Positions 3 to 14,054 of a stretch of 14,317 bases of DNA are shown here, in pieces. The translations under genes and the position numbers were made by a program. Location of the stretch: positions 1 to 14,317 of the IMG/VR virus record IMGVR_UViG_3300011339_000564; one strand, written 5' to 3'. This DNA is from a virus. Taxonomy: Duplodnaviria; Heunggongvirae; Uroviricota; Caudoviricetes. The notes beneath the pieces are model-generated. The model saw only the letters and a program-made list of their open reading frames with translations. It did not search any database and had not been told where the DNA came from. Positions within the stretch are counted from its first letter, which is position 1; the number at the start of each line of letters is the position of its first letter.

Positions 3-848
3 TCCGGTGCTGGCGAAGAAGTATCAGGCGGTGATTACGAGAATGAAGAAGGTCACGGTGATGAGCATGGTCCTGAAGAAACATGTGAATCATGCGGTGG
101 AATGATGGAAGCTGGTCATTCATGTGAATCAAAAGAAATGGTTGATGAAGTTGAATCAGAAGACCAACAATTATACAATGTAGCTGAAGATAATCCTCCT
201 GATAGTGGTGCTGATAATACTGATACTGATGTTGCAGGTCAAGTAGGTAGTGACAAAGCATTAGCAACAGCGGATGCGGCAGCAGACGAAGAAGAGGCTA
301 AAATATATTCAAGCCCCACTAATGAAGCCGAAGATGAAACAGGTGAAGAAGCCGGTGAGGAAGAAGAACAGAAAGAAAAAATGTCAGAATCAAGTTTCTT
401 TAATCTTTACAAAAAACTAGCAATGTTGTCTGAAGAATCTACTAGTGAGAAAGATGACAAAGCAGAAAGAGCCGCTAAAAAAGTTGCCAAAGATATCGAA
501 TATGATGAAGATCATAAAGGTAAAGATGATGACAAGGCAGAAGAAGCCGGCAAAAAAGTCAAAAAAGACATTGAGTATGATGATAAGAAAGACAAAAAAG
601 AAAAGATTGACGAGTGGGCTAACGAAGCCGGTAAAAACGGCACCGACGCATCATTTGAAGCTGACATTGACTTTATGATGAACATCATCAGTGGTGGTTT
701 GAACAAGCGTAAGCAAACTGGTCAAACAACTATCCCTGTTCTTGGTACTCAAATGAATCGTATGGTATCTCACAGTACAACAGACATTAACGAATCAAAA
801 ATGTTGAATGAATCAGTTAATGACTGGAAAAAACTAGCAGGTATTTAA
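3..848 (+). CDS. Acidic putative head/prohead-core-like protein, 5'-truncated by the window edge
   Basis: The frame of ORF 102..848 is open back to base 3 (SGAGEEVSGGDYENEEGHGDEHGPEETCESCGG-MMEAG...), so the real start lies upstream of the window. Very D/E-rich, with a CxxC-x7-HxC motif, a 25-aa tandem duplication and the C-terminus INESKMLNESVNDWKKLAGI. The head role is inference from composition and I/L-N-E motifs. Confidence 0.6.
   Translation, partial: SGAGEEVSGGDYENEEGHGDEHGPEETCESCGGMMEAGHSCESKEMVDEVESEDQQLYNVAEDNPPDSGADNTDTDVAGQVGSDKALATADAAADEEEAKIYSSPTNEAEDETGEEAGEEEEQKEKMSESSFFNLYKKLAMLSEESTSEKDDKAERAAKKVAKDIEYDEDHKGKDDDKAEEAGKKVKKDIEYDDKKDKKEKIDEWANEAGKNGTDASFEADIDFMMNIISGGLNKRKQTGQTTIPVLGTQMNRMVSHSTTDINESKMLNESVNDWKKLAGI
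453..584 (+). repeat. In-frame tandem duplication with a 75-nt period (DDKAERAAKKVAKDIEYDE / DDKAEEAGKKVKKDIEYDD)
   Basis: Copies start at 453 and 528; similarity is visible in both protein and DNA. Confidence 0.9.
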
Positions 849-944: not shown

Positions 945-3900
945 ATGGCTCAACAAAATATAGACTTTGGTAGCTTTCCCGATGATCCGTCGGCAGATGC
1001 TATACGAACGGCTTTTACAAAAGTACAAGATAACTTTAATCAACTATTTGGTACTAATGCAAATTCAACAGTAACTTCAATTAACAGAACACCCGGAGCA
1101 GGTGTTACTGTTAATTATCCTACAGGTAATGTTGTAATTTCAGCAAACATTGCATGTTTACAAGTATCAACTACATCATTAAAAGTAGGTCGAGGATCAG
1201 ATAATACACAAAGTAATGTAACAATTACAAGTTCTTCACAGCAATTAAACATCGATATTGATCCAGCAAATGTCTTTTCTGCTAATTTTGGCGCGCCAGG
1301 ATTAGGCTTAGCAAATTTCAATGGTACATTAACAGCTAATTCTTTTTATCAACCAAATATTAACGCATTAGGAATACTTTCTTCTTTGGATGTTTCTGGA
1401 AATGCTAATTTTACCGGTAATTCTTCATTTACTAGTAATGCTACTTTTAGTGGCACTAATGTTAATGTTTCAGGTGCATCCAATGTAAATCTTGGATCGA
1501 TTAGTAATATTCATATTAGTGGTGGAACAGTAGGATATTATTTACAAACAAATGGTCTTGGTAATCTAATATGGGGCCCAGGCGGTGGTGGTAATGGCGG
1601 CGGGTCACCAGGGGGAATTAACACACTTGTTCAATTTAATGATGCTGGATCATTTGGTGCTAATCTAGGTTTTTCATTTGATAAAGTAACTGGCATTTTA
1701 TCTACGCCGGGATTAACTGTTGCAAATCTAGCAACAGTTGGAAATATAACTGGAATCTTTGCAAACGGAAACAGTAATGTTAGTATTCCTGTTGTTGACG
1801 GAAATGTTAATATTAGTGCAGCCGGGAATGCAAATGTTTTTGTTATTACTGGTGCGGGAGCAAACCTAATAGGAAATCTTACTACTGGAAATGCTGACTT
1901 AGGAAATTTAGTAACAGTTAATTATATAACGGGAACACTAACTACCAATGCTCAACCTAACATCACTAGTGTTGGTACACTAGTTAATTTATCTGTTACT
2001 GGAAATATAACTGCAAGTAATGTATATGCAAACAGTGGAACCATCGGTGCAAGTTTATTAATTGGTACATTAACTACAAACGCACAACCAAATATAACTT
2101 CAGTTGGTACATTAACATCACTAGCAGTAACAGGTAATGCAAATGTTGGTAATTTAAATGTTGCAAACAACACAATCATTGCTGGTAACCTATCAGTATT
2201 AGGTAACGCAACTTATGTTAATATTGAATCACTAGTAATTGAAGATCCTATTATTTCGTTGGGTGGCGGTCCCAACGGAGATCCATTAACAACTAATGAT
2301 GGTAAAGATAGAGGTACAGCATTACAATATTATACTACTATACCTGTTACTGCATTTATGGGATGGGACAATAGTAACAGTGAATTTGGATTCGGCAGCA
2401 ACGTTACTATATCTAGTGAAGTTGTTACGTTTACTAACTATGGCAATGTACGTGCTAGCTATTTTATAGGTGCTAATACACAATTTGGTAATGCTAATTT
2501 GGGCAACACTGCAACTGCTAATTTCTTTGTTGGTACATTTTATGGTGTTGCTAATTCAGCAACAACAGCCGGTACAGTAACTACGGCGGCACAACCTAAC
2601 ATTACAAGTGTTGGTACATTAACAAGTTTAGCAGTTACAGGAAATACTACATCAGGTAATTTTGTAGGTACATTAGCAAACGGCAATAGTAATATTTCTA
2701 TTACAGCCGATAGTAATATTAATCTTACTTCTACTGGTAATACGACAGTAGTAGTTACAGGTACAGGCATCAATGCAAATGGCACAGGTAACTTTAGTGG
2801 TAATTTGTCGGCAGCTAATATATTAGGACCATTAGCTAATGGAAATAGTAATATAAATATCCCAACAGCTAATGGCAATATTAATTTCTCTGCTGTGGGC
2901 AATGCAAACATTGTTATCGTTAGTGGCACCGGTGCAAACATCACCGGTACATTGGGTACTACAGGCAATGCATCTGTTCTTGGTATCAAAACAGATAATT
3001 ATTATTATGCTAACGGCACACCAATTAGTTTCGCAGGTACGTATGGTAATAGTAACGTTGCTACATTCTTAGCAAGCTATGGTAGTAACACAATTACAAC
3101 TACAGGTAATGTGAGTGTTGGTAACATTATAGGCAATGGTCAAGCATTGACTGGTCTTGTCGGCGCCAATGTAACCGGTACTGTGGCTAATGCAACATTT
3201 GCAACTACAGCAGGTACAGTAACAACCGCGGCACAAGGTAACATTACAAGTGTTGGCACATTAACTGGTTTAGGAGTTAATGGCACCATTACTGGTGTAA
3301 ACATTACTGCTAATACGGGTGTGTTTACAGGTAACGCTAGTGGCTTATCAGTATTGAACGCAAGTAACGTATCTAGTGGTACGTTAGCCCAAGCACGATT
3401 AGCTAATGCCGCAGTAACACTAGGTAGTACTGCACTAACATTAGGTAGTACTGTTACTACTGTAGCCGGTCTAACTAGCGTAACATCAACAACATTTGTT
3501 GGTGCATTGACAGGTGCGGCATCAAGTGCTACTACTGCAGGTACTGTAACAACAAATGCACAACCTAACGTTACAAGTGTTGGTACATTAACATCAGTGA
3601 GTTCTAGTGGTAATATAACTGGTGCAAACGTTATTGCAAACTCATATAACATTCGTTCGGTAGCTACTAGTATTAGTGCTAATGGTATTAGTCAAGGTAC
3701 CGCTACTGTGCTTGCAAAAGAATTCAATATTGTTTCTACTGTATCGGCCGGTCAAGGTGTTGTATTACCAACAGCAGTCGCTGGCATGTGTATAATAATT
3801 ACAAACTCAAGTGCAACTAATCTTGCAGTTTATCCCGCATCCGGTGCCGCAATTAATTCATTGGCAGCTAATGCCGCATTGACACACGGAGCAGGGGCAA

Positions 3901-3962
3901 CACTACAGTATATTGCTCCCACAACAACTCAATGGTATACGGTAGGTGCAACATATGCTTAA
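945..3962 (+). CDS. Long tail fibre / baseplate-anchored fibre protein (1005 aa)
   Basis: The N-terminus MAQQNIDFGSFPDDPSADAIRTAFTKVQDNFNQLF resembles the T4 gp9/gp10-type N-terminal motif (I-x-x-G...DD...D-x-[LI]-R...K-[IV]-N/Q-x-N-F-x-x-L). The body is N/T/G/A/S/V-rich with AQPNITSVGTL repeats. The C-terminal segment looks like a beta-sandwich (VVLPTAVAGMCIIITN...VYPASGAAIN). Confidence 0.75.
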   Translation: MAQQNIDFGSFPDDPSADAIRTAFTKVQDNFNQLFGTNANSTVTSINRTPGAGVTVNYPTGNVVISANIACLQVSTTSLKVGRGSDNTQSNVTITSSSQQLNIDIDPANVFSANFGAPGLGLANFNGTLTANSFYQPNINALGILSSLDVSGNANFTGNSSFTSNATFSGTNVNVSGASNVNLGSISNIHISGGTVGYYLQTNGLGNLIWGPGGGGNGGGSPGGINTLVQFNDAGSFGANLGFSFDKVTGILSTPGLTVANLATVGNITGIFANGNSNVSIPVVDGNVNISAAGNANVFVITGAGANLIGNLTTGNADLGNLVTVNYITGTLTTNAQPNITSVGTLVNLSVTGNITASNVYANSGTIGASLLIGTLTTNAQPNITSVGTLTSLAVTGNANVGNLNVANNTIIAGNLSVLGNATYVNIESLVIEDPIISLGGGPNGDPLTTNDGKDRGTALQYYTTIPVTAFMGWDNSNSEFGFGSNVTISSEVVTFTNYGNVRASYFIGANTQFGNANLGNTATANFFVGTFYGVANSATTAGTVTTAAQPNITSVGTLTSLAVTGNTTSGNFVGTLANGNSNISITADSNINLTSTGNTTVVVTGTGINANGTGNFSGNLSAANILGPLANGNSNINIPTANGNINFSAVGNANIVIVSGTGANITGTLGTTGNASVLGIKTDNYYYANGTPISFAGTYGNSNVATFLASYGSNTITTTGNVSVGNIIGNGQALTGLVGANVTGTVANATFATTAGTVTTAAQGNITSVGTLTGLGVNGTITGVNITANTGVFTGNASGLSVLNASNVSSGTLAQARLANAAVTLGSTALTLGSTVTTVAGLTSVTSTTFVGALTGAASSATTAGTVTTNAQPNVTSVGTLTSVSSSGNITGANVIANSYNIRSVATSISANGISQGTATVLAKEFNIVSTVSAGQGVVLPTAVAGMCIIITNSSATNLAVYPASGAAINSLAANAALTHGAGATLQYIAPTTTQWYTVGATYA
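1932..3617 (+). repeat. Dispersed ~26-aa repeats GT[LV]TT[NA]AQ[PG]N[IV]TSVGTL in the fibre, plus three ANGNSN[IV]-type repeats
   Basis: Clear copies begin at 1932, 2064, 2571, 3213 and 3540, with a degenerate copy (GTLTANSFYQPNINALGIL) near 1325. ANGNSN[IV][SN]I blocks occur near 1760, 2675 and 2835. Confidence 0.9.
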
Positions 3963-4041: not shown

Positions 4042-4665
4042 ATGGTAACAATAGAATTATTAACATCAATGTGTCCAAAGACAAAACGCTCTATATTAGA
4101 GGGTTTTGTTGAACCATTAAACACAGTAGCAGAATATTATGAGATGTTTGAGAACCCACGTAGAGTCGCAGGTTTTTTAGCACAGATAGCACACGAAAGC
4201 GGTGGCTTCAATGCTGTTGTTGAAAACTTAAATTATAGTGCTAAAGGCTTGATGGGTACATTTAAGAAATACTTTCCAACAGAAGATTTAGCAAAGCGAT
4301 ATGAACGCAAGCCAGAGATGATTGCTAATCGTGTATATGCTAATCGTATGAAGAATGGTGATGAGAATAGTGGCGATGGCTTTAGATTTAGAGGTCGTGG
4401 ATTAATTCAATTGACCGGTCGTGATAACTATACACGATTTGCAGAAGCATTGGATATGAGTATTGAAGATACAGTAAGATATTTAGAAACACCAAACGGT
4501 GCTGTTGCAAGTGCTGGTTGGTTCTGGGATAACAATAAACTAAATCAGTTCTGTGATAAAGATGATTTCATTACATTAACAAAACGTATCAATGGTGGAA
4601 CAATTGGGTTAGAAGATAGAAAGCATCACTATCACTTAGCACTACAACATTTAGGCGCACATTAA
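4042..4665 (+). CDS. Glycoside hydrolase family 19 (chitinase-class) lysin / peptidoglycan hydrolase
   Basis: Typical phage GH19 motifs: FLAQIAHESGGF (catalytic Glu), ENLNYS, GDGFRFRGRGLIQLTGRDNY, SAGWFW, TKRINGGTIGLEDR. Confidence 0.93.
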   Translation: MVTIELLTSMCPKTKRSILEGFVEPLNTVAEYYEMFENPRRVAGFLAQIAHESGGFNAVVENLNYSAKGLMGTFKKYFPTEDLAKRYERKPEMIANRVYANRMKNGDENSGDGFRFRGRGLIQLTGRDNYTRFAEALDMSIEDTVRYLETPNGAVASAGWFWDNNKLNQFCDKDDFITLTKRINGGTIGLEDRKHHYHLALQHLGAH

Positions 4666-4666
4666 T

Positions 4667-7177
4667 ATGGCACAACCAGTATGGAATACCCCGGCAGGTT
4701 CTATTGGAACATTTCCTTATGGTGTAGTTTCAGTATTTCAATTATCTGCATCACCTGTATTACCTGCAACTAACATTGTTAGTTATGTTTTGTTAGCAGG
4801 TACCCTACCTATCGGAATGACATTAAACACTACAACCGGAATAATTAGTGGCATACCTGTACTTGTTATAATTGAAACTATTAGTTCTTTTACGATTAGA
4901 GCAACTGATAATGATGGTAATATACGTGATAGAACTTTTACAATGACTATTATAGGTACGGCTGTACCACAATTTACCACTCCATCAGGTGTATTACTCA
5001 GCACCCAAGATAGTATATGGACACAACTTAGTATACAATATACAAATCCTGATCCAACAAATGAAGTAATAGTAGAATTACAAGAAGGTTTATTACCACC
5101 AGGACTTGAACTATCTACTGCAGGTCTAATCCAAGGATATCCTGAGCCACCTACAGTTAACGTAACATTACCATTAATAACAACGGTTGGATTCTCAACT
5201 GATGCATCTACTAATTATATTTACGTTTTATCAACTAATGGATTTACAGTAGGAAGATCAGTTACTTTTTCTACACCCATTGGTGGCATAGCTGCCGGAA
5301 CAACATATTATGTTAAAGAAATTGATAATAATTTGTCCGCATTTACCATATCAACTACTCAAAATGGTGGAACTTTTCCAGTTTCAACTGCTACTGGTGG
5401 AATGTCAATTTCACTACCACCAGTATCATCGGGTCAACCTGCAATTAGAACATATAATTTTGTATTAAGATTAGTAAGCCCATTGGGAGGTAATATTAGT
5501 TCATATTCTATTACTGTTATTAATCAGCAAACTCCCACAAATCAGGGTGGTCCTGGTCGACCACCCAATAATCGTAGACCCACATTGTTGAATACAAGAC
5601 CTCTCACTATAGATATAAGTGACACTGATCCGTATTATGGTTATTATTTATTACCGCCAGTAGAACCAACTTCATTTGCTCAAATAGGTACAATATCTAG
5701 TGATGATTTTTTTGCATTCAAAATGTTAGGATATGATTTTGATGGTAACCCGTTGAAATATCAGTTTTCTCCTTTACCTTTGCCACTAGGATTAGTCGGC
5801 GATGAGGATACTGGATGGATTACGGGCACTCCTGAATTAGCTACATCGGGCATTAATAGTTTTACATTTAGTGTAAGAGCATATAAGGCAGATAGACCAA
5901 ACGATCCAAACGTATCTACTACACCGTTTAATTTTACATTTAATGTAAGTAAAGATGTTACTGGTAATATTGAATGGATTACCCCAGCAGATTTGGGATT
6001 AATATACAATGAAGTTATCAGTACATTAAAAGTCAATGCAGTATCAGATGTACCCCTAGAGTATAGAGTAACCTCTGGGTCATTGCCTCCTAACTTAGTG
6101 TTATTAAGTAATGGTGAGATAACCGGATTCGTTGCTACTCAACCAACTGACCAGTTTTTAGATATAGGTGAAAGTACAGAATTTACATTCACAATTCAAG
6201 CATTCTCGCCTGAATTTGCTACAGTTCAAACAAGTAGAACTTTTACTCTTACTGTATATCAAGAGTTTGGTCAACCTACAGACATTCTTTATATTAAGGC
6301 GGCACCAAGTATACAAGATAGAAATATCATAGAGACATTATTACTTGATGAAACATTAATACCAACTGAATCATTATATAGACCTAATGACATATATTTT
6401 GGTAAAGCAACAAATGTTACATATGAACATGCGTATGGTATATACGCCAGTGATATTCAACAATATATTGCCGCAGTAACACGAAATCATTATTGGAGAA
6501 ATATTACTTTAGGTGAATTAAAAACTGCTGTAGCAAAAAATGATGCAGGTGAAATAATTTATGAAGTAGTATATAGTGAAGTCATTGATAATCTGGTAAA
6601 TCCTTCTGGAGTAAGTGTTCCGATAAGAATTAATTGGCCAAGACCAATTAACTTAAACTTAGGTCCATGGTATACAAGTGTAACTGATATATTTACAAGT
6701 TATATATTTGGAGAAGATACTGTATCAGGTACTAAAGAGTTTTATACAAGTTTATCACCGGGATTTGCACGACTGTTGTATCCAAATAGTTTGTATAACA
6801 TGCGTACACGTGTAGCACAAGAATTAGGACAAGAATATAACAGTAAACTATTACCATTATGGATGACAAGTCAACAGGAAAATGGAAGTACCTTAGGTTA
6901 CACTCAAGCGTGGGTAATATGTTATACTAAACCAGGATTTGCCAACGCAATTAAAGATAATATTGATGCACAGTGGCCATATACGTTGAATCAAATTAAT
7001 TTTAGAATTGATAGATTTAGTGTAGATAAGAGTGCAACATATGATTATGACAACAACTTAACTCCACCAGCTTGGACTGGATTACCTAGTGCTCAACCTG
7101 TGCCCGATCCATTAGACAGTAAAGATTTTTATGTGTTATTCCCTAGACAAACAATTTTACCGGATGAAACACAGTAA
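4667..7177 (+). CDS. Virion structural protein with multiple putative Ig-like (He_PIG/cadherin-like) repeats; probable baseplate/tail component (836 aa)
   Basis: Four repeats of the type G-x-LP-x-G-[ML]-x-L...G-x-I-x-G-x-P: AGTLPIGMTLNTTTGIISGIP, EGLLPPGLELSTAGLIQGYP, LPLPLGLVGDEDTGWITGTP, SGSLPPNLVLLSNGEITGF. Three are preceded by W/F-x-T-P; FTIRA/FTIQA strands follow. Starts 1 nt after the GH19 stop. Confidence 0.75.
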   Translation: MAQPVWNTPAGSIGTFPYGVVSVFQLSASPVLPATNIVSYVLLAGTLPIGMTLNTTTGIISGIPVLVIIETISSFTIRATDNDGNIRDRTFTMTIIGTAVPQFTTPSGVLLSTQDSIWTQLSIQYTNPDPTNEVIVELQEGLLPPGLELSTAGLIQGYPEPPTVNVTLPLITTVGFSTDASTNYIYVLSTNGFTVGRSVTFSTPIGGIAAGTTYYVKEIDNNLSAFTISTTQNGGTFPVSTATGGMSISLPPVSSGQPAIRTYNFVLRLVSPLGGNISSYSITVINQQTPTNQGGPGRPPNNRRPTLLNTRPLTIDISDTDPYYGYYLLPPVEPTSFAQIGTISSDDFFAFKMLGYDFDGNPLKYQFSPLPLPLGLVGDEDTGWITGTPELATSGINSFTFSVRAYKADRPNDPNVSTTPFNFTFNVSKDVTGNIEWITPADLGLIYNEVISTLKVNAVSDVPLEYRVTSGSLPPNLVLLSNGEITGFVATQPTDQFLDIGESTEFTFTIQAFSPEFATVQTSRTFTLTVYQEFGQPTDILYIKAAPSIQDRNIIETLLLDETLIPTESLYRPNDIYFGKATNVTYEHAYGIYASDIQQYIAAVTRNHYWRNITLGELKTAVAKNDAGEIIYEVVYSEVIDNLVNPSGVSVPIRINWPRPINLNLGPWYTSVTDIFTSYIFGEDTVSGTKEFYTSLSPGFARLLYPNSLYNMRTRVAQELGQEYNSKLLPLWMTSQQENGSTLGYTQAWVICYTKPGFANAIKDNIDAQWPYTLNQINFRIDRFSVDKSATYDYDNNLTPPAWTGLPSAQPVPDPLDSKDFYVLFPRQTILPDETQ

Positions 7178-7202: not shown

Positions 7203-8273
7203 ATGAGCACAATTAACACCAACCCAATCAATGTAAACTACCCTGTACCAGGAGTTAATAATAACTCTCAGGGTTTTAGAGATAACTTTGCCTCTATCGT
7301 TACTAATTTGGACATTGCGGCGACTGAGTTAACTGACCTACAGAATAAAGTTGTAGTTAAACAGGCATTAACTGGAACAGTTGTAAACAATGATATGGCT
7401 AATACTCTTATCAGTAATGCAAGCACACGCGGTTTTAGAGCAACTACTTATAATTTAGGTAACGCATTAGCCGGTACTGTATTGGTTAATGCTTCACTAG
7501 CAGATGTACATTATGGAACAGTAGCCGCTAATACTACAATCAATTTTGGTAGCTGGCCTCCTACTGGTACACAAAGTAATATTCAAGTTAGACTAAGTGT
7601 ATCCAATGCTACCGCAGTTATTACTTTCTCGGGTAATGTAATAGCAAGTAACAATACTGGTGCAACAACACTAGAGAATTACGTATCTAATAGTGGACTA
7701 GTAACAGTTACAGCACCATATGGTGTTAGTGAAATGGACTATATTATTAGTACAACAGATTGCGGAAACACGTTGTATATTGAACCAATCAATAGACCTA
7801 GACAGTCAACTCAGATTCAACAACGCACACCAACACCAACTGGATATCAAGGTGATGTTGCCGGAGAGGTAGCAGTAGATGCAAATTATGCTTATGTATG
7901 TACAGGGTCATATAATTCTTCAGCTACTACAGTATCAATTGCACCAGCTGGTAATACGGTCGCAACTGGTAACGTAATTAATTTTAATGCTACTCATGGT
8001 TTAACCAGTCCAACTAATTTAAATGTTCCAATTATATTTTCTGGGAATGCATTTACTGCAAATGCATTTGGTGGATTAACTGCAGGTGCAATATATTACG
8101 TAAAAACTATACCATCAAGTACATCTATAACTGTTAGCGCAACTAGAACTTCAGGTACAGCAGGTTCTCCGGTAGCACTAACTTCAGCTACCCCTGCGGC
8201 AAATACTACACTATCCGGAACATATTATATCGGTTCGGACATCTGGAAAAGAATCGCACTTACTTCTTGGTAA
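7203..8273 (+). CDS. Tail fibre / baseplate-associated structural protein (356 aa)
   Basis: N-terminal INVNYPVPGVNNNSQGFRDNFASIVTNL is a coiled anchor-type motif. The C-terminal GYQGDVAGEVAVDANYAYVC...IWKRIALTSW is a fibre-tip-type motif. T/N/A/G-rich. Confidence 0.65.
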   Translation: MSTINTNPINVNYPVPGVNNNSQGFRDNFASIVTNLDIAATELTDLQNKVVVKQALTGTVVNNDMANTLISNASTRGFRATTYNLGNALAGTVLVNASLADVHYGTVAANTTINFGSWPPTGTQSNIQVRLSVSNATAVITFSGNVIASNNTGATTLENYVSNSGLVTVTAPYGVSEMDYIISTTDCGNTLYIEPINRPRQSTQIQQRTPTPTGYQGDVAGEVAVDANYAYVCTGSYNSSATTVSIAPAGNTVATGNVINFNATHGLTSPTNLNVPIIFSGNAFTANAFGGLTAGAIYYVKTIPSSTSITVSATRTSGTAGSPVALTSATPAANTTLSGTYYIGSDIWKRIALTSW

Positions 8274-8279
8274 TAAATA
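8272..8279 (+). promoter_or_regulatory. Putative late promoter box AATAAATA overlapping the upstream stop codon
   Basis: TAA (8271-8273) runs into ATAAATA (8273-8279), 6 nt before the ATG at 8286. Confidence 0.55.
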
Positions 8280-8285
8280 TCTAGG

Positions 8286-8543
8286 ATGAAACATCCTTTT
8301 ATTAACGATTTATCAGAAAAAACAATAGAAGAATTGCAAACGGCAATTGAAAGTTTAACGAACAAGTTAAATTACGCCTATCGTACGGGCAATAGTCCGT
8401 TAATACATCAACTACAAATGGTAATGGAAAGTTACCGTGAGCAAATCAGCAAGAAAATGGATGAAATCTTCAAAAAGCAAAATATCAAAACGAACGTTAA
8501 CATAGAAAAAGAGGGCGAAATTGTCAACAAGAATAGAACGTGA
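8286..8543 (+). CDS. Hypothetical helical-hairpin/coiled-coil protein (85 aa)
   Basis: Clean ORF in operon context with amphipathic helices (LSEKTIEELQTAIESLTNKL). Confidence 0.75.
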   Translation: MKHPFINDLSEKTIEELQTAIESLTNKLNYAYRTGNSPLIHQLQMVMESYREQISKKMDEIFKKQNIKTNVNIEKEGEIVNKNRT

Positions 8544-9117
8544 TTTTAGTTTTCAAGCCGGGGTTCATTTTGAAGGTAGCTTCATTATGAATATCTACAA
8601 TTTAACTCTAGCAATGGAAGTAGAAACTGAATCAATAACAGAACAAAACATTGCTATGGACAGAATTATATACTTTTTAGAAGATAGTTTAGCCAATAGT
8701 GTATTTGTTCAAACTAGTGATAAAAAGGCTATAGAGAAATATACTCAAGCAGATATTAAAGTATGCACAGTTCCAGAAGAACCATACGATCAAATTATTA
8801 CTATGCTATTGATATTGAAATTGAATAATATTACTGAAGGTAGATTAAACATAACTGATATCTTTTTAGAATCCGAATTAAGTGATAGTGTTAGATTCAC
8901 TTACGACATTGAAACAGCAAGGCATAATCCTTTTGGAAATAAAGGTTGGTGGTTAGAAACATCTACTTCAATGAATAATATTGAAAAGAATACAAAAAAA
9001 GAAAAGATTGTAAGATTGGTCAAACATAATGATTGGGCAAATGTTGGACTAGAATGGGAAAAGAAAACCAAAGCATCTGAAATACTCTTCACCAATGAGT
9101 CTGATAAGTTACCATAA
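8521..9117 (+). CDS. Hypothetical protein, possibly a degenerate QueD/PTPS-like T-fold (198 aa, TTG start)
   Basis: TTG start preceded by GAGGG (8511-8515); overlaps the previous gene by 23 nt. The patterns RIERDFSFQAGVHF and EPYDQIITMLLILKL...ITDIFLES loosely resemble QueD strands and helices. The ORF is well supported; the fold is tentative. Confidence 0.6.
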   Translation: MSTRIERDFSFQAGVHFEGSFIMNIYNLTLAMEVETESITEQNIAMDRIIYFLEDSLANSVFVQTSDKKAIEKYTQADIKVCTVPEEPYDQIITMLLILKLNNITEGRLNITDIFLESELSDSVRFTYDIETARHNPFGNKGWWLETSTSMNNIEKNTKKEKIVRLVKHNDWANVGLEWEKKTKASEILFTNESDKLP

Positions 9118-9120
9118 CTG

Positions 9121-9149
9121 TTGATTTTTACAATCAACTGTGTTAACAT
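9121..9149 (+). promoter_or_regulatory. Sigma70-like promoter TTGATT-N17-TAACAT with extended -10 TG
   Basis: TTGATT at 9121-9126, 17-nt spacer, TG at 9141-9142, TAACAT at 9144-9149. Predicted +1 is about 9155-9156, which coincides with the ATG. Confidence 0.55.
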
Positions 9150-9154
9150 ATGTC

Positions 9155-9661
9155 ATGCGTACTGATATATATGGTCAACTTATTCTAAGTGAAAATGATT
9201 TATGCGATTTATATATGCGTGACCCAACACGCACACTAAAGAAAGCATATACCGAATCTAACATCAGTTTAGATGATATTCTATATATTGAATCTAAACC
9301 TGAACTAATTGAGTACATAGATTCAAACTTGTCAATAGAAGATTTTGACAATAATAATCAATCAAACTGGTATATGCCTAAAGAATATAAAGAAATAGAC
9401 ATTGCCAAGTTTGTATTGGATCAATGTGCTAACGAAGCAGAGTTACAACGTGCCGGAGAAGAACTTATCTTATTCCAAGAACGTAATATGTTTGTGCTAC
9501 TACAGTATTTGAAGTATTTGGTTGATACAATGCGTAAACATAATATCGTATGGGGAGTAGGTCGTGGCTCTAGCGTAGCAAGTTTTGTATTGTTTTTGTT
9601 AGGGGTACACCGTATAAATAGTTTGTACTATGACTTGTCGATTGACGAGTTTATTAAATAA
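9155..9661 (+). CDS. Stand-alone DNA polymerase III alpha (DnaE/PolC family) N-terminal palm fragment, 168 aa, lacking the catalytic aspartates
   Basis: QRAGEELILFQERNMFVLLQYLKYLVDTMRKHNIVWGVGRGSSVASFVLFLLGVHRINSLYYDLSIDEFIK aligns by eye with bacterial DnaE (RL..EL.VI...GF..YFLIV..FI.W...NG..VGPGRGS.AGSLVAY.L.IT..DPL.F.LLFERFL). The ORF stops where DnaE continues NPER.SMPDxDxDF. ATG 9155 is preferred over GTG 9140. Confidence 0.85.
   Translation: MRTDIYGQLILSENDLCDLYMRDPTRTLKKAYTESNISLDDILYIESKPELIEYIDSNLSIEDFDNNNQSNWYMPKEYKEIDIAKFVLDQCANEAELQRAGEELILFQERNMFVLLQYLKYLVDTMRKHNIVWGVGRGSSVASFVLFLLGVHRINSLYYDLSIDEFIK
9613..9620 (+). promoter_or_regulatory. Perfect TATAAATA late box inside the 3' end of the DnaE fragment, possibly driving the 9672/GroES unit
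   Basis: Exact T4 late consensus 51 nt before the ATG at 9672; a second TTAAATA lies at 9654-9660. It sits in coding sequence, so chance is possible. Confidence 0.4.
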
Positions 9662-9671
9662 GGAGAAAATT

Positions 9672-10037
9672 ATGGCTACACATAGAACAGCAATGGGAAA
9701 ACAAGTTGACATGAATGCACTGCGTTCAAAAAACGAAAAAACGAGAGCAGTAGGAAACGTTAAGAATTTAAATGCACGTGGTGATACTATTGATGCCCAT
9801 GGACGTGTGATTAAATCAGTAACGTCAAAAGTTAATGATGGGTATTCTAAAACAGTGGGTAATCGTTCAGCAAATGTTACCAAACGATCTGCTCCTGTAC
9901 AAAAGATTCAACCTGACAAACCAAAAATTGATTTAACTCAATTAACAGCAGAAGAACGGGAATTTGAAGAATCATTGGAATATGATTTAGAAGTTGAAAA
10001 AATTAAAGAAGCAGAAATCAAAGCAAAGAAGAAGTAA
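9672..10037 (+). CDS. Hypothetical protein (121 aa) with basic N-terminus and acidic/charged C-terminus
   Basis: Strong SD AAGGAG at 9660-9665 places the start at ATG 9672 rather than 9630. Contains RTAMGKQVDM...NE...AVGNVKNLNARGD. Confidence 0.8.
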   Translation: MATHRTAMGKQVDMNALRSKNEKTRAVGNVKNLNARGDTIDAHGRVIKSVTSKVNDGYSKTVGNRSANVTKRSAPVQKIQPDKPKIDLTQLTAEEREFEESLEYDLEVEKIKEAEIKAKKK

Positions 10038-10038
10038 C

Positions 10039-10419
10039 ATGACTGAAAAGAAATTAGCATTTGAACCACATAAAATAGTTAGAGATAAGTTTACACCTAT
10101 TGGAGCACATATCATTGTATCTGATATGAAGTTTGAACATCGTATTACCCATGGTGGTATTTTGTTGCCCAATGATGATATGAAAAGTGCAGGTATCAGA
10201 CCTCGTTGGGCACAAATTTATGCAATCGGCTCGGAGTATAATGGTGGTGAGCTTGAGATTGGTAATTGGATATTAGTTAGTCACGGACGTTGGACACGAG
10301 GAATCGATATTGAAGATGAAACGGGTAAGAAGACGTTGCGTAGAGTGGATCCTAATGATATACTAATGGTAGCAGATCAATACATGGGTGATGAAACCAT
10401 GAGTGATATGGTATATTAA
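10039..10419 (+). CDS. groES: GroES/Cpn10-like co-chaperonin (functional analogue of T4 gp31)
   Basis: FTPIGAHIIV (GroES xxPLxDRVxV), mobile loop ITHGGILLP (cf. TxGGIxLP), AQIYAIG, LEIGNWILV (cf. VKVGDxVLF), and VDPNDILMVAD (cf. xxExDILAxx). The start is ATG 10039, 1 nt after the previous stop. Confidence 0.85.
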   Translation: MTEKKLAFEPHKIVRDKFTPIGAHIIVSDMKFEHRITHGGILLPNDDMKSAGIRPRWAQIYAIGSEYNGGELEIGNWILVSHGRWTRGIDIEDETGKKTLRRVDPNDILMVADQYMGDETMSDMVY

Positions 10420-10432
10420 TATAGGAAACACA

Positions 10433-10732
10433 ATGATAAACTGGTTACGAACAAAATTACACAACTTTATATTTCCACAAGACACCACCAATGAGTTAGT
10501 AGAAGCTAAAACTCATAGAGGGCGTGCCCTTATTAGTAGAGGCTCACAACTTGATAGTAGAGGTGGATTGACTTTTACAATTCATATGGCTAACGGTGGC
10601 TATGTTTTAGAATACTCAACGTATAATGAGAAAACTGATAGACATGACAATGCACTACATATCATTACTGCTGACACGGATTTAGGTCAAGGTATCGCAC
10701 ACATCATCACACTTGAAATGTTAAGAAAATGA
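10433..10732 (+). CDS. Hypothetical protein (99 aa)
   Basis: SD-like TAGGA at 10422-10426 supports ATG 10433. The stop overlaps the next start (ATGA). Confidence 0.75.
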   Translation: MINWLRTKLHNFIFPQDTTNELVEAKTHRGRALISRGSQLDSRGGLTFTIHMANGGYVLEYSTYNEKTDRHDNALHIITADTDLGQGIAHIITLEMLRK

Positions 10733-11655
10733 AGAATCAACTCTGGGTAGAAAAGTATCGTCCTAACACAGTAAACGATTATGTGTTTGTTGACGAGCGA
10801 TTAAAAAATCAAGTAAGTAGCTGGATCAAAGATAAAATGATCCCACACTTGTTATTGAGTGGTGATCCGGGCACTGGCAAGACTACACTTGCTAAAGTGT
10901 TGATACATGAACTGGGTGTTGATGACTATGATGTAATGGAAATCAATGCATCACGTGAACGTGGTATTGATATCGTCAAAGATAAAATCAATACATTTGC
11001 ACAAACTATGCCTTTTGGTAGCTTCAAAGTTATCTTACTTGATGAGGCTGATTATACAACGCCAGACTTTCAAGCGGCATTGCGTAACGATATGGAAGCA
11101 TACGCTGATACAGTTCGTTTCATTCTTACTTGTAATTATGAGACAAAGATTATCCCAGCATTGCGTGAGAGTCGTTGTCACAAAGTGCATATTACAAAAC
11201 CAGATCGTACAGAGTTTACTGCACGTGCGGCGACAGTATTGGTTACTGAGAATGTTGAGTTTGATTTAGATACCCTTGACAGTTATGTTCGTGTTAGCTA
11301 TCCAGACTTGCGTAAATGCTTGAATCAGTTGCAAGTCAATAGCAACACAGGTGTATTGTTGCCCCCTCAAGCACAGGGGAGTAGCGAACATGAGTTGTTG
11401 TTGGAAGCAACGACCCTATTCAAGTCTGGTAAGATTCTTGAGGGTAGGCAACAATTAATGCAGTACATTGCACTATATCCTACACGCATTGAAGATACAT
11501 ATAAATGGATGTATGACAACTTAGACTTGTGGGGCAAGGATCAAGAAAAGCGTGATGCAAGTATCATTACGATTCGTAATGGTCTAGCAAATCTGCCACT
11601 AGTAGGTATTCCTGATATTAGTTTGGCAGCGACATTGGTGGAGTTGACAGCATGA
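10729..11655 (+). CDS. Sliding-clamp loader AAA+ ATPase subunit (T4 gp44 / RFC small-subunit type)
   Basis: RFC box II LWVEKYRP, Walker A GDPGTGKT, EINASRERGID, Walker B ILLDEAD, sensor 1 FILTCN, arginine finger SRC, and DLRKCLN. Confidence 0.95.
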   Translation: MKNQLWVEKYRPNTVNDYVFVDERLKNQVSSWIKDKMIPHLLLSGDPGTGKTTLAKVLIHELGVDDYDVMEINASRERGIDIVKDKINTFAQTMPFGSFKVILLDEADYTTPDFQAALRNDMEAYADTVRFILTCNYETKIIPALRESRCHKVHITKPDRTEFTARAATVLVTENVEFDLDTLDSYVRVSYPDLRKCLNQLQVNSNTGVLLPPQAQGSSEHELLLEATTLFKSGKILEGRQQLMQYIALYPTRIEDTYKWMYDNLDLWGKDQEKRDASIITIRNGLANLPLVGIPDISLAATLVELTA

Positions 11656-11915
11656 GATATTTTTTAATTACATATGTTCGTAAATCAAACGGACAAATCG
11701 ATGAGATGGTTACTATTAGTAAACGTACTCGCACTAGTGACATTCAAACCTGTAATGTAATACTAGATTTTCAAGCAAAGAAGATTGACAAATGCGTTAT
11801 TGAGGGTAAAGTAGTTGATAGTGATTGGGATAAGATGTGTGAATATTATAAACGTGTTTATCCTACATTGATTGACCAATTAGAAAAAGCAAATAGCGAT
11901 AGTACAAAAGTATAA
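11652..11915 (+). CDS. Hypothetical protein (87 aa)
   Basis: ATGA overlap with the clamp-loader stop; ends at the terminator. Confidence 0.75.
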   Translation: MRYFLITYVRKSNGQIDEMVTISKRTRTSDIQTCNVILDFQAKKIDKCVIEGKVVDSDWDKMCEYYKRVYPTLIDQLEKANSDSTKV

Positions 11916-11938
11916 AAGGGGCATTTAGCCCCTTTTTT
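11914..11938. terminator. Bidirectional rho-independent terminator between convergent genes
   Basis: AAAAGGGGC-ATTTA-GCCCCTTTT(TT): a perfect stem with an A run on the left and a T run on the right, so both strands get a U tail. It overlaps both stop codons. Confidence 0.92.
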
Positions 11939-12716
11939 ATGCGTACATTTTTAGAACATGTTCAATGATCTTATGACGTTGAACGTCTTTAAGTTCAAAG
12001 TGGCATAACTGCAACCCTGGTATCACCCCCTTCCCCAATCGATTTTGTAAGTCTAGTAGCCCATTGTCGGCTGTTTTTCTATCGGTTTGTTCTATGTCGC
12101 CAGTAATTACAATCTTACTGCCTACACCGATTCTAGTCATAATCATTTTGAGTTGACCAGGAGTTGCATTTTGTGCCTCGTCTAATACTACATAGCTATG
12201 TTTGAAATTTCTACCTCGACAGAATGCTAGGGGCGCAATCTCCACTATCTGTTCTTCTAGCATGTGGGTAATTTCCTTTGCTGTATAATATTCACGCAGT
12301 ACGTCTAATAAAGGTCTGGTCCATGGTTCCATCTTTTGATTGATATCTCCGGGTAAGAATCCATGTTTTTCGTCATCGACACCTACGGCAGGCCTTGTTA
12401 ATATGATTCTATCACATTCACCATCACGCATTGCTTTAATGGCAGCCTGCATAGCTAGGTATGTTTTACCCGTGCCAGCTGGACCAGAGACAACAACAAT
12501 GTCTGTATTGTCATCAAGCAATGCTAGTATGTATTTTTCTTGGTTTAGGGACTTTGGAATCAATTGAACGGGTCTTGTATTAACCCTCATTGTTCTTTGT
12601 GCCTGTGAAAAATCTATTGTTTTTGACTCTTTCATATAAAATGTATGGTCTTTTTTGGTTTGTGCAAACCGTGTGTCTTGCTGAGTTCGTAATGCGCTAG
12701 TTTTTCTTTTGCTCAA
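11937..12716 (-). CDS. phoH: PhoH-family ATPase/RNA helicase-like protein (259 aa, TTG start)
   Basis: PKSLNQEKY, Walker A GPAGTGKTYLA, IILTRPAV, GFLPGD, EIAPLAFCRGR, LDEAQN, MTRIG, ITGDIEQTD, DVQRH. SD AAAGGAG 7 nt upstream places the start at TTG 12716, not 12758. Confidence 0.95.
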   Translation of the reverse strand: MSKRKTSALRTQQDTRFAQTKKDHTFYMKESKTIDFSQAQRTMRVNTRPVQLIPKSLNQEKYILALLDDNTDIVVVSGPAGTGKTYLAMQAAIKAMRDGECDRIILTRPAVGVDDEKHGFLPGDINQKMEPWTRPLLDVLREYYTAKEITHMLEEQIVEIAPLAFCRGRNFKHSYVVLDEAQNATPGQLKMIMTRIGVGSKIVITGDIEQTDRKTADNGLLDLQNRLGKGVIPGLQLCHFELKDVQRHKIIEHVLKMYA

Positions 12717-12757
12717 GTTAATTCTCCTTTGTAGAGCATGAGTGCTCATAACACTCA

Positions 12758-12787
12758 AGTTTATTTAAGGTCAATACTTAGTGTCAA
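12758..12787 (-). promoter_or_regulatory. Sigma70-like promoter for phoH, TTGACA-N18-TAAACT
   Basis: On the minus strand, a perfect TTGACA at 12787-12782 and TAAACT at 12763-12758. A TAAATA box (12767-12762) is nested in it. Confidence 0.55.
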
Positions 12788-12885: not shown

Positions 12886-13482
12886 ATGAATCATCACGAA
12901 ACCGCCGACAACTTTTTTAATGACATTGACTATGTAAGCATAGTTAGCACCGTTAAGGGTATCTTTACCAGTGACGGGTCAATGAACACCCTACTAGACT
13001 TTGAACGAGTATTAGACGAAGCTGACTTATATGCCTTTAGAAACTGGGAATTAGGAGAACTAGTTCAAGGTCCTGATGTACGTAGATATAGTGTTGCCTG
13101 TGTATTCATGTGGCCATACAAATTAATGCCCAATCCAAAGGGTGCAAGAAGATTAGTAGCGATTGGATGTAAAGTCAAATTTGCCAAATCTGAAGTTAAA
13201 GTTCCAGTAGAAGTCACCGAATACGATGACTATATTCCAGGAACACGCTATCCCAAATCAAAGCCAAAGAAAGTTTGGTTTGTGTATATTGAGATTCCAA
13301 AATCATTACTAGATGATATTAAAGAAGGTACGATTGACTTAGCCGGTCAAACCATTGATTTGGAAGAATTAGATGATTCTTATGATGATGATTTAGATAA
13401 GAATGAGACAGAAGAACAACAAGCTGAATCTCCTGATATGGCTATGGGAGCTCCGGCCCCGGCAGCAATGCCACCTGCATGA
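12886..13482 (+). CDS. Hypothetical protein with acidic C-terminal tail (198 aa)
   Basis: Globular-looking body (LLDFERVLDEADLYAFRNWELGELVQGP...FMWP...MPNPKGARRL...GCKV) with a D/E- and P/A-rich tail; ATGA overlap with the next gene. Confidence 0.85.
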   Translation: MNHHETADNFFNDIDYVSIVSTVKGIFTSDGSMNTLLDFERVLDEADLYAFRNWELGELVQGPDVRRYSVACVFMWPYKLMPNPKGARRLVAIGCKVKFAKSEVKVPVEVTEYDDYIPGTRYPKSKPKKVWFVYIEIPKSLLDDIKEGTIDLAGQTIDLEELDDSYDDDLDKNETEEQQAESPDMAMGAPAPAAMPPA

Positions 13483-14054
13483 AAGTAACTATGAATAAGC
13501 AAATTATCAATGAAGGTTTAGAGTACATGGATATGGTTTATCAAGTTGAACCAGAATTAAGCGTAGATGAGTATGCGGCAAAGATGGGTAAAGATAGTGA
13601 TATTGTAACATTAGCTTTTATCGTAAACAGTGAAGCAGCCGGCAATGATTTAGTTGATTGGTTTGAACGTGGATATGATTGGGTACTTGATGCTAGTGTT
13701 AGCGAAGGTGAATTAAGTCCAGGCAAATATTTAGTATTTGTTGAAATGGAACGCAGAAGCAAAACAGCATCACGTATTGTAGAATTACTAGAAGATTTAG
13801 AAACATTGACTGGATTATCATTAGATGATTGGTCAGTTGAAGTTGAAGGTGAAACGTATGGGGCTGACAAAGACAAATTAAAAGAAGTAATCACTATTAG
13901 TCCGCATGAATACCGTGAAGAATACGAGGACGAAGAGGAAGAAGATGGTTCAGAATTAAATGAAATGCGTCAACGTGCTGGAATTGAACCTATTAAGAAA
14001 TTTGGCAAACCGGATAGTGAATTAAAAGCCTTTAAGGCAATGGCGGGGTTATAA
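13479..14054 (+). CDS. Hypothetical acidic protein, possibly virion-head associated (191 aa)
   Basis: Contains IDE/VDEY..KMG.DSDIVTLAF, GYDWVLDASVSEGE, an acidic run, then LNEMRQRAGI...FKAMAGL at the C-terminus. Confidence 0.8.
   Translation: MKVTMNKQIINEGLEYMDMVYQVEPELSVDEYAAKMGKDSDIVTLAFIVNSEAAGNDLVDWFERGYDWVLDASVSEGELSPGKYLVFVEMERRSKTASRIVELLEDLETLTGLSLDDWSVEVEGETYGADKDKLKEVITISPHEYREEYEDEEEEDGSELNEMRQRAGIEPIKKFGKPDSELKAFKAMAGL

Follow-up and report, generated by a model that had tools for sequence, protein, structure and literature searches.

A minimal DNA polymerase III alpha subunit (Pol III alpha) split in two genes has been predicted computationally for the 'group 2.2' jumbo phages (Iyer, Anantharaman, Krishnan, Burroughs & Aravind 2021, Viruses 13:63, PMC7824862, sections 3.4.1 and 3.5, Fig. 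3b), and an accessory role beside a family B replicase was proposed for it by the same authors (PMC7824862). The DnaE-like enzymes of group 3.2 jumbo phages are, in contrast, single-chain and host-like proteins that contain a PHP domain and serve as the main replicase (PMC7824862). Some GenBank records already name both halves of the split enzyme DNA polymerase or DnaE-like, and a literature search returned no later paper on the split minimal Pol III. Here we analyze a short gene at positions 9155-9661 of a 14,317-nt stretch (the window) that forms the left end of a 78,317-bp IMG/VR viral contig (record IMGVR_UViG_3300011339_000564), with an estimated completeness of 22%. An earlier, sequence-only reading of this DNA had singled out the gene as an isolated piece of a C-family polymerase, adding the caveat that reduced DnaE-like genes may already be known in related jumbo phages. 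The work of Iyer et al. 2021 (PMC7824862) bears out that caveat: the split minimal Pol III is already known, and the value of the present analysis is confirmatory.

The comparative analysis outlined below makes it very likely that this gene encodes the nucleotide-binding subunit (N-unit) of a two-gene minimal Pol III alpha, forming a heterodimer with a second protein (C-unit) encoded elsewhere; the exact activity of the pair is a less secure assignment. In its family, length, split point and GRGS loop, the N-unit conforms to the described split minimal Pol III alpha (PHROG 11127 for the N-unit and PHROG 11778 for the C-unit). The features of the gene, with the evidence for each, are the following (dN/dS, ratio of nonsynonymous to synonymous substitution rates; HMM, hidden Markov model).

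9155-9661, plus strand: probable N-unit gene of a split minimal Pol III alpha, 168 residues plus a TAA stop (translation, PHROG 11127, PF07733, 80 IMG/VR orthologues, dN/dS).
9155-9361, plus strand: N-terminal extension, residues 1-69, modelled as a small alpha/beta region of no recognised family, not PHP (AlphaFold2 model).
9362-9658, plus strand: first half of a C-family polymerase palm, residues 70-168, equivalent to E. coli DnaE 278-393 (VIA-align, HMM alignment, dN/dS).
9560-9571, plus strand: GRGS loop, G136-R137-G138-S139, the hG[GS] triphosphate-binding loop of the Pol-beta-like nucleotidyltransferase fold, invariant in two homologue alignments.
9659-9674, plus strand: gene boundary with the TAA stop, an overlapping AAGGAG Shine-Dalgarno sequence and the next ATG (direct sequence reading; stop position kept in 80/80 relatives).

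Profile searches revealed a match of the N-unit to C-family DNA polymerases that is far above chance. The Pfam profile PF07733 (DNA_pol3_alpha) matches with an E-value of 8.5e-9 and 35.8 bits, against a cut-off of 23.9, residues 91-167 corresponding to profile positions 18-94 of 260 only, and PHROG 11127 ('DNA polymerase', 171 positions) matches with an E-value of 1.7e-38, residues 56-168 aligning with profile positions 59-171. The last 71 positions of a profile of 78 homologues align to residues 322-392 of E. coli DnaE (E 2.2e-4). Since this alignment reaches L392, the chain ends at the equivalent of the FERFL motif, at E. coli N393 and 8 residues short of the catalytic D401, and none of the three catalytic aspartates (E. 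coli D401, D403 and D555) is contained in it. The GRGS loop aligns to E. coli G361-R362-G363-S364, and G134, G136, R137, G138 and S139 are invariant across 78-87 homologues. The sequence-only reading had placed a DnaE/PolC signature in the C-terminal ~70 residues and the stop just before the catalytic PDxD motif, and had proposed a profile check against DNA_pol3_alpha; the match above the Pfam cut-off, the alignment to DnaE 322-392 and the position of the chain end agree with it on both counts.

The AlphaFold2 model of the N-unit, built with the 78 homologues, presents a mean predicted local distance difference test score (pLDDT) of 92. In this model, residues 70-168 superpose, GRGS loop included, on the initial half of the palm of M. 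tuberculosis DnaE1 (PDB 5LEW, residues 305-413; Z 12.0, root-mean-square deviation 2.4 A, 97 aligned residues) and of E. coli Pol III alpha (PDB 2HNH, residues 278-393; Z 10.4-11.3, 2.3 A, 93 aligned residues) in VIA-align comparisons. The DnaE-like part of the N-unit begins where the palm starts after the PHP domain. The extension that precedes it (residues 1-69) was modelled with pLDDT values mostly of 85-94 (68 for the block 41-50), with strands at residues 9-11, 31-33 and 51-53 and helices at 13-22 and 61-69. Structure comparison returned neither a match covering these residues nor a PHP-like match, Pfam searches of the N-unit gave no hit to the profiles PF02811, PF17657 and PF14579, and an Atlas feature search with residues 1-72 returned nothing at >=0.9. 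The earlier suggestion that the ~95 residues ahead of the signature do not form an intact PHP domain hence stands, with the correction that this segment is not all foreign: from residue 70 onwards it belongs to the DnaE-like palm, and only residues 1-69 are unmatched. Unlike DnaE and PolC, the N-unit lacks the PHP domain, the catalytic aspartates, the thumb, the fingers and the beta-clamp-binding, OB and tau-binding regions, encompassing 168 residues versus ~1160, and the catalytic residues lie on a separate polypeptide.

The short length of the match, which covers only ~77 of the 260 positions of PF07733, could be taken to indicate a decaying, frameshifted or misassembled fragment of a full-length dnaE, and the precedent of intein-split dnaE in cyanobacteria to indicate a piece of a split-intein gene. 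The conservation of the gene, its co-occurrence with a C-unit and the lack of intein residues render either origin exceedingly improbable. All 80 IMG/VR relatives (63-98% identical) present an equivalent ATG start, a length of 164-169 residues and an EF[LI][KR]-stop ending, with the stop codon itself varying among TAA (57), TGA (18) and TAG (5), and distant isolate phages with 28-36% identity end at the same position. Pairwise dN/dS was 0.15 over the whole gene, with a lower ratio in the DnaE-like half (residues 91-168, 0.09) than in residues 1-90 (0.26). Furthermore, an exhaustive search of 1.84 billion representative proteins yielded 1032 representative clusters at E <= 1e-3, and the best 150 of these 1032 are all 95-222 residues long and end where the N-unit ends. 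Because start and end are shared by 80/80 relatives, stop codons turn over and dN/dS is 0.15, the comparative sequence data indicate that the N-unit is a finished, conserved gene and not a remnant. This coincides with the previous assertion that the gene is not a frameshifted remnant, and it is also the outcome of the tests for a conserved stop position and for purifying selection that had been put forward with it, dN/dS being not near 1.

No fused or full-length form was found either. The search for a fused N-unit and C-unit identified only two longer proteins, neither of them such a fusion, which amounts to weak evidence only: a 360-residue protein from a JGI contig (P0272) joins a homologue of the upstream 198-residue open reading frame (ORF) to the N-unit, and a 666-residue protein from an ENA contig (P0273) reads in frame from an N-unit (residues 1-177) into a ribonucleotide reductase C-terminus (PF02867). 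Both are singletons and may reflect genuine fusion, loss of a stop codon or chimeric assembly.

With regard to inteins, the catalytic subunit of cyanobacteria is encoded by two distant dnaE genes, the halves of which are rejoined by a trans-splicing split intein. The phage system resembles that arrangement in that a C-family catalytic subunit is encoded by two distant genes, and differs from it in that the cyanobacterial break lies elsewhere and no intein residues flank the break here. The N-unit shows no intein-like residues at its C-terminus, ending in EFIK-stop, and the C-units have 0-17 residues before their DxDxD motif. Since no intein residues flank the break, the two units must stay separate chains. 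The N-unit ORF runs from the ATG at 9155 to the TAA at 9659-9661; the AAGGAG at 9660-9665 overlaps this stop codon, and the ATG of an unrelated 121-residue gene follows at 9672. The absence of an intein N-terminal motif, and the Shine-Dalgarno sequence and unrelated gene directly after the stop, had been correctly read from the sequence alone.

For the remainder of the palm, the sequence-only reading had postulated a partner encoded by another gene that starts near an xDxDxDF motif and contains the third aspartate. Such a partner is present in related genomes. While PF07733 finds only the N-unit, both in the 78-kb contig and in the complete genome of Pseudomonas phage MIJ3, the full-length phage DnaE profile phrog_405 picks up an ORF at 51202-51804 of MIJ3, 44 kb from the N-unit of that phage. 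The two units match phrog_405 weakly and collinearly (of 1190 positions, 366-429 for the N-unit and 579-679 plus 773-809 for the C-unit; in MIJ3, 363-429 for the N-unit and 579-679 plus 776-808 for the C-unit), a likeness to the full-length group 3.2 jumbo phage polymerases of the phage G type; those polymerases are single-chain main replicases, and the enzyme studied here is a minimal one in two pieces, found alongside a family B polymerase. The MIJ3 C-unit is 200 residues long, starts with M-A-K-V-V-T-D-V-D-I-D and contains K-I-D-L-L, in keeping with the postulated start and third aspartate.

The C-unit family corresponds to PHROG 11778 (E 6.9e-56) and shows weak collinear matches to four full-length DnaE-like PHROGs. 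In every lineage, the C-units (188-213 residues) consist of a methionine, 0-17 residues and then D-[IV]-D-I-D, followed by the invariant motifs K-x-D and IRPxK and by KxH..Y, mostly in the form FKKxH..Y. Across 35 sequences, down to 35% identity, D6, D10, K69, D71, R139, P140, K142, H171 and Y175 are invariant, and D8 is kept in more than 90%. By motif reading, the C-unit would be the second half of the palm, without a thumb and with a strongly reduced finger module; its IRPxK and FKKxH..Y motifs are presumably the counterparts of the RPGP and FNKSH motifs of the E. coli enzyme. Folded alone, the C-unit reached a mean pLDDT of 59.5, with residues 1-73 below 50. In an exhaustive VIA-align comparison of this model with 48,161 PDB representatives, the seven highest-ranking chains were C-family polymerases without exception (Z 4.9-7.2), ahead of the best unrelated chain at Z 3.9, and model residues 51-193 (~143 residues) span residues 379-807 (~430 residues) of the E. 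coli enzyme. A Foldseek search with the C-unit against the PDB gave nothing usable, no NCBIfam match was found, and some Atlas neighbours of the C-unit have the PF17657 DNA_pol3_finger domain. In MIJ3 and RaK2, the C-unit gene is flanked by a UvsW/RadD helicase on one side and by primase/gp41 helicase on the other.

Two further properties of the C-unit were considered and rejected. A weak similarity between the two units (E 0.005) was not repeated by BLASTP (E 0.77) and was attributed to chance. Readthrough of the C-unit into a clamp-binding tail was likewise discarded, there being up to three in-frame stops of mixed kinds. At locus L094:2050-2472 (minus strand), and in the matching stretch of loci L096-L175, a convergent gene of 126-140 residues runs into the final ~60 nt of the C-unit gene, and this overlap explains why the plus frame looks conserved past the stops that many relatives carry in frame at positions 188, 192 and 199.

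The two units occur together across a wide range of phages. By tblastn, the N-unit is found in 97 isolate phage records, all of them jumbo phages, including PA5oct/MIJ3, SCTP-2, Atu_ph07, Phosso, RsoM2USA, XacN1 and Rak2-like phages of Escherichia, Klebsiella, Salmonella and Erwinia, and the C-unit in 96 records of the same genera. Each of six complete isolate genomes holds exactly one N-unit and one C-unit, at distances of 44 kb (MIJ3), 182 kb (Atu_ph07), 116 kb (SCTP-2), 33 kb (RaK2), 15 kb (XacN1) and 4 kb (RsoM2USA). Complete metagenomic genomes likewise contain a single C-unit gene each. The N-unit of the present phage falls in a large uncultivated clade, the nearest isolates being PA5oct/MIJ3 (49.5% identity over residues 60-168). 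A C-unit was identified on six of the eight long IMG/VR contigs that carry an N-unit, and in the two closest relatives (N-unit 78% identical) it lies 41.5 kb upstream of the N-unit, the distance being 41-43 kb among the closest relatives. In one of the two exceptions, both contig ends fall inside the 10.6 kb that hold the C-unit in its relative, indicating an assembly gap; the other contig is 66% complete and rearranged, and is uninformative.

This distribution also bears on whether the N-unit could act by itself as a non-catalytic module that interferes with the host replisome, the alternative offered by the sequence-only reading, for instance as a decoy capturing host Pol III partners or nucleotides. 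Such a role would be compatible with the lack of catalytic aspartates, with the confident folding of the N-unit alone (pLDDT 92) and with the distance between its gene and that of the C-unit. It is nonetheless improbable and is not favoured here, given that the catalytic half always accompanies the N-unit: the C-units found together with it have an invariant catalytic triad, and what it retains of DnaE is buried palm core and none of the surfaces that bind tau, beta or epsilon. Furthermore, gamma- and alphaproteobacteria as well as uncultured freshwater organisms are among the hosts, and the conserved face of the N-unit is the side predicted to face the C-unit.

Association of the two chains was examined by co-folding the N-unit of this phage (P0001) with the C-unit of its closest long relative (78% identity between the two N-units), using a separate alignment for each chain. 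The alignments were made without isolate-phage sequences, and that of the C-unit was shallow (77-100% identity). The co-fold scored 0.90 in three runs, against 0.00 for the best of three controls; in the calibration of the co-folding tool, the score mark is reached by 58 of 80 solved complexes and by 2 of 110 mismatched pairs, counts that apply only roughly here because the co-fold was run with custom alignments. The runs share at least 95% of their contacts, with C-unit pLDDT values of at least 88. In the co-folded model, N-unit residues 133-135, just before the GRGS loop, contact C-unit residues 9-11 in the DxDxD strand, and N-unit residues 65-74 contact C-unit residues 43-47 and 65-68, adjoining the third aspartate. 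The N-terminal extension also participates, the contacts to the C-unit including N-unit residues 1-11, 19, 28-31, 49 and 61-74. This predicted geometry is as expected if both chains rebuild one Pol-beta-like palm, and the co-fold, which had been suggested along with the split-enzyme idea, supports binding of the N-unit to the C-unit at the level of a model.

Taken together with the profile and motif data, the model suggests how the two chains would operate. The N-unit would provide the first half of the palm, namely its helices, one beta-strand, the GRGS triphosphate loop and the helices that follow; because none of the three metal-binding aspartates is present in it, it cannot catalyse alone and would be inert in isolation. 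The C-unit would provide the DxDxD strand, the third aspartate in K-x-D and a much-reduced finger module (IRPxK, FKKxH..Y), without thumb, PHP, clamp-binding or OB domains. N-unit and C-unit would associate as an obligate heterodimer through pairing of the GRGS strand of the former with the DxD strand of the latter. The active site would then exist only at the interface, where one chain would contribute the triphosphate loop and the other all three carboxylates. The pair would most likely operate as an accessory template-dependent DNA polymerase, in repair or in one strand or stage of replication, beside the family B polymerase. Because both genes lie among replication genes, the reconstituted enzyme is probably such an accessory DNA polymerase next to a family B replicase. 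We infer the binding of the chains, the catalytic activity of the pair, its substrate and its role in infection from these comparisons.

A heterodimer of the same composition might also be a different nucleotidyltransferase of the Pol-beta fold, one performing template-independent tailing, primer- or RNA-directed synthesis, or generating a nucleotide product. The thumb, HhH/beta-binding, OB and PHP domains are all missing, the ~143 model residues of the C-unit stand for ~430 of DnaE, and the phage already owns a family B polymerase. In the metagenomic clade, moreover, the gene ahead of the C-unit belongs to PF16473, a family that Pfam calls exoribonuclease. We consider this reading unlikely, yet the most plausible of the alternatives, in view of the finger motifs retained by the C-unit (IRPxK and FKKxH..Y), which are those of C-family DNA polymerases, of the replication-gene neighbourhoods of both genes, and of the closest folds, all of which are replicative C-family polymerases.

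The PF16473 gene encodes a DEDD 3'-5' exonuclease (Rv2179c-like, E 5.6e-33) and lies directly upstream of the C-unit at locus L094:953-1501 (plus strand). Of the loci of the uncultivated clade of this phage (L096-L175), 67 extend far enough upstream to show this position, and all 67 have the exonuclease gene directly ahead of the C-unit; in 56 of them its end runs 4 or 11 nt into the C-unit start. This association is not mentioned in Iyer et al. 2021 (PMC7824862). The exonuclease may be a proofreading partner of the C-unit; its gene was not found on the contig analyzed here. MIJ3 and RaK2 present unrelated genes at the exonuclease position, and XacN1 has a gene annotated as 'Pol III epsilon' 2.3 kb downstream. 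A rather speculative extension is that the pair is no conventional replicase and instead a specialised nucleotidyltransferase switched on only when its halves meet, that it forms a three-part unit with the DEDD exonuclease in the freshwater-type clade, and that this unit is a minimal self-proofreading C-family core near the ancestral bacterial replicase.

Several observations weigh against the interpretation of the N-unit as one half of a split C-family DNA polymerase. No C-unit was detected on the 78-kb contig, either by a DxDxD motif scan or by tblastn with the MIJ3 C-unit, and the check put forward earlier, to look through the rest of the genome for an ORF with a DxDxDF motif and the third aspartate, thus yields none on this contig, which is 22% complete. 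The N-unit carries a glutamate at the equivalent of E. coli R390. For the C-unit, no match was found in Pfam (31 members searched) or by sequence profile in the PDB, and its link to DnaE rests on weak PHROG matches, motifs, moderate structural Z-scores and the co-fold. The C-unit in the co-fold is a stand-in from a relative, and the high score may reflect likeness to, or memory of, DnaE structures in which both halves were solved as one chain. An enzyme without a thumb, a duplex-binding HhH/beta-binding domain and most of the fingers is not assured to carry out template-dependent synthesis, and the literature search found no experiment or biochemistry on either protein. As for the contig, the C-unit is expected beyond its left end, since the N-unit lies only 9.1 kb from that end. 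We infer the pairing of N-unit and C-unit for this phage; the split-enzyme idea is upheld by the partner gene in related genomes and by the co-fold, and is left without a partner gene on the contig itself.

The genomic context of the N-unit gene conforms to that of group 2.2 jumbo phages, with a GroES-like gene, a gp44-type clamp loader and PhoH in its neighbourhood and a family B polymerase in the genome. The genes that follow it in the window, and the polymerase gene located on the contig outside the window, are the following.

9672-10037, plus strand: conserved 121-residue protein (phrog_14844, E 5.5e-8), which tblastn places immediately after the N-unit in MIJ3, SCTP-2 and RaK2.
9994-10419, plus strand: GroES-like co-chaperonin or head-morphogenesis protein (PF00166, E 3.1e-4; phrog_931, E 3.4e-12), syntenic in MIJ3, Atu_ph07, SCTP-2 and RaK2.
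10729-11655, plus strand: T4 gp44-type clamp-loader large subunit (phrog_168, E 1.1e-69; PF00004), in the same order in MIJ3, Atu_ph07 and SCTP-2.
11937-12758, minus strand: PhoH (PF02562, E 1.3e-69).
12886-14054: two virion structural proteins (phrog_12928 and phrog_13138).
36809-38095 of the contig, outside the window: family B DNA polymerase, in an open frame of 914 residues (PF00136, E 4.2e-33).

The order N-unit, small protein, GroES-like gene and gp44-type clamp loader is common to MIJ3, Atu_ph07, SCTP-2 and RaK2, and in MIJ3, as in the window, the minus-strand PhoH gene and the virion proteins come after the clamp-loader block. The family B polymerase is presumed to be the main replicase of the phage, and its presence, together with the RFC-type clamp loader and the synteny with MIJ3, Atu_ph07 and SCTP-2, fits a T4-like jumbo phage of group 2.2. 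The locus differs from the known isolates of this group only in sequence (49.5% identity to PA5oct/MIJ3 over residues 60-168) and in having the partner off the contig, with no structural difference. A nucleotide megablast search of window positions 8000-12000 against isolate phages gave no match.

Replication and virion genes are interleaved in the window, following the order seen in MIJ3. Upstream of the N-unit, a 5'-truncated ORF at 3-848 (plus strand) encodes a very acidic protein rich in Asp, Glu and Lys, with repeated KDDDKAE..AGKKV.KDIEYD units and no family match. The ORF at 945-3962 (plus strand) encodes a 1005-residue protein rich in Gly, Asn and Thr with a recurring T-T-[NA]-A-Q-[PG]-N-[IV]-T-S-V-G-T-L motif, which is probably a repetitive fibre protein; its sole PHROG match is a weak one to the tail-fibre family phrog_6942 (E 2.8e-4). 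A 207-residue chitinase-like (GH19-type) endolysin is encoded at 4042-4665 (plus strand; phrog_181, E 1e-74), between this fibre-like gene and two large ORFs, at 4667-7177 (836 residues) and 7203-8273 (356 residues), for which no family match was obtained.

A perfect 7-bp inverted repeat (GTTGATT, TTTAC loop, AATCAAC) was observed at 9120-9138, in the 37-nt gap between the stop of the upstream ORF and the N-unit ATG; a consensus terminator scan did not call a terminator there. No evident Shine-Dalgarno sequence was found ahead of the ATG at 9155, and a promoter and terminator scan of window positions 8400-10200 returned counts at or below the shuffled expectation.

To the computational prediction already available for this system, the present analysis adds the exact conservation of the split point over deep divergence, the dN/dS values, a controlled co-fold and, for one clade, the coupling of an exonuclease gene with that of the C-unit. 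Should the pair be active, it would constitute the smallest known C-family polymerase, with ~360 residues in two chains and without PHP, thumb or clamp-binding domains, and a C-family enzyme would then be present in a virus whose replication relies on a family B polymerase. The system hence bears on the origin of the bacterial replicase and on the reasons for which two unrelated polymerases are maintained in jumbo phages.

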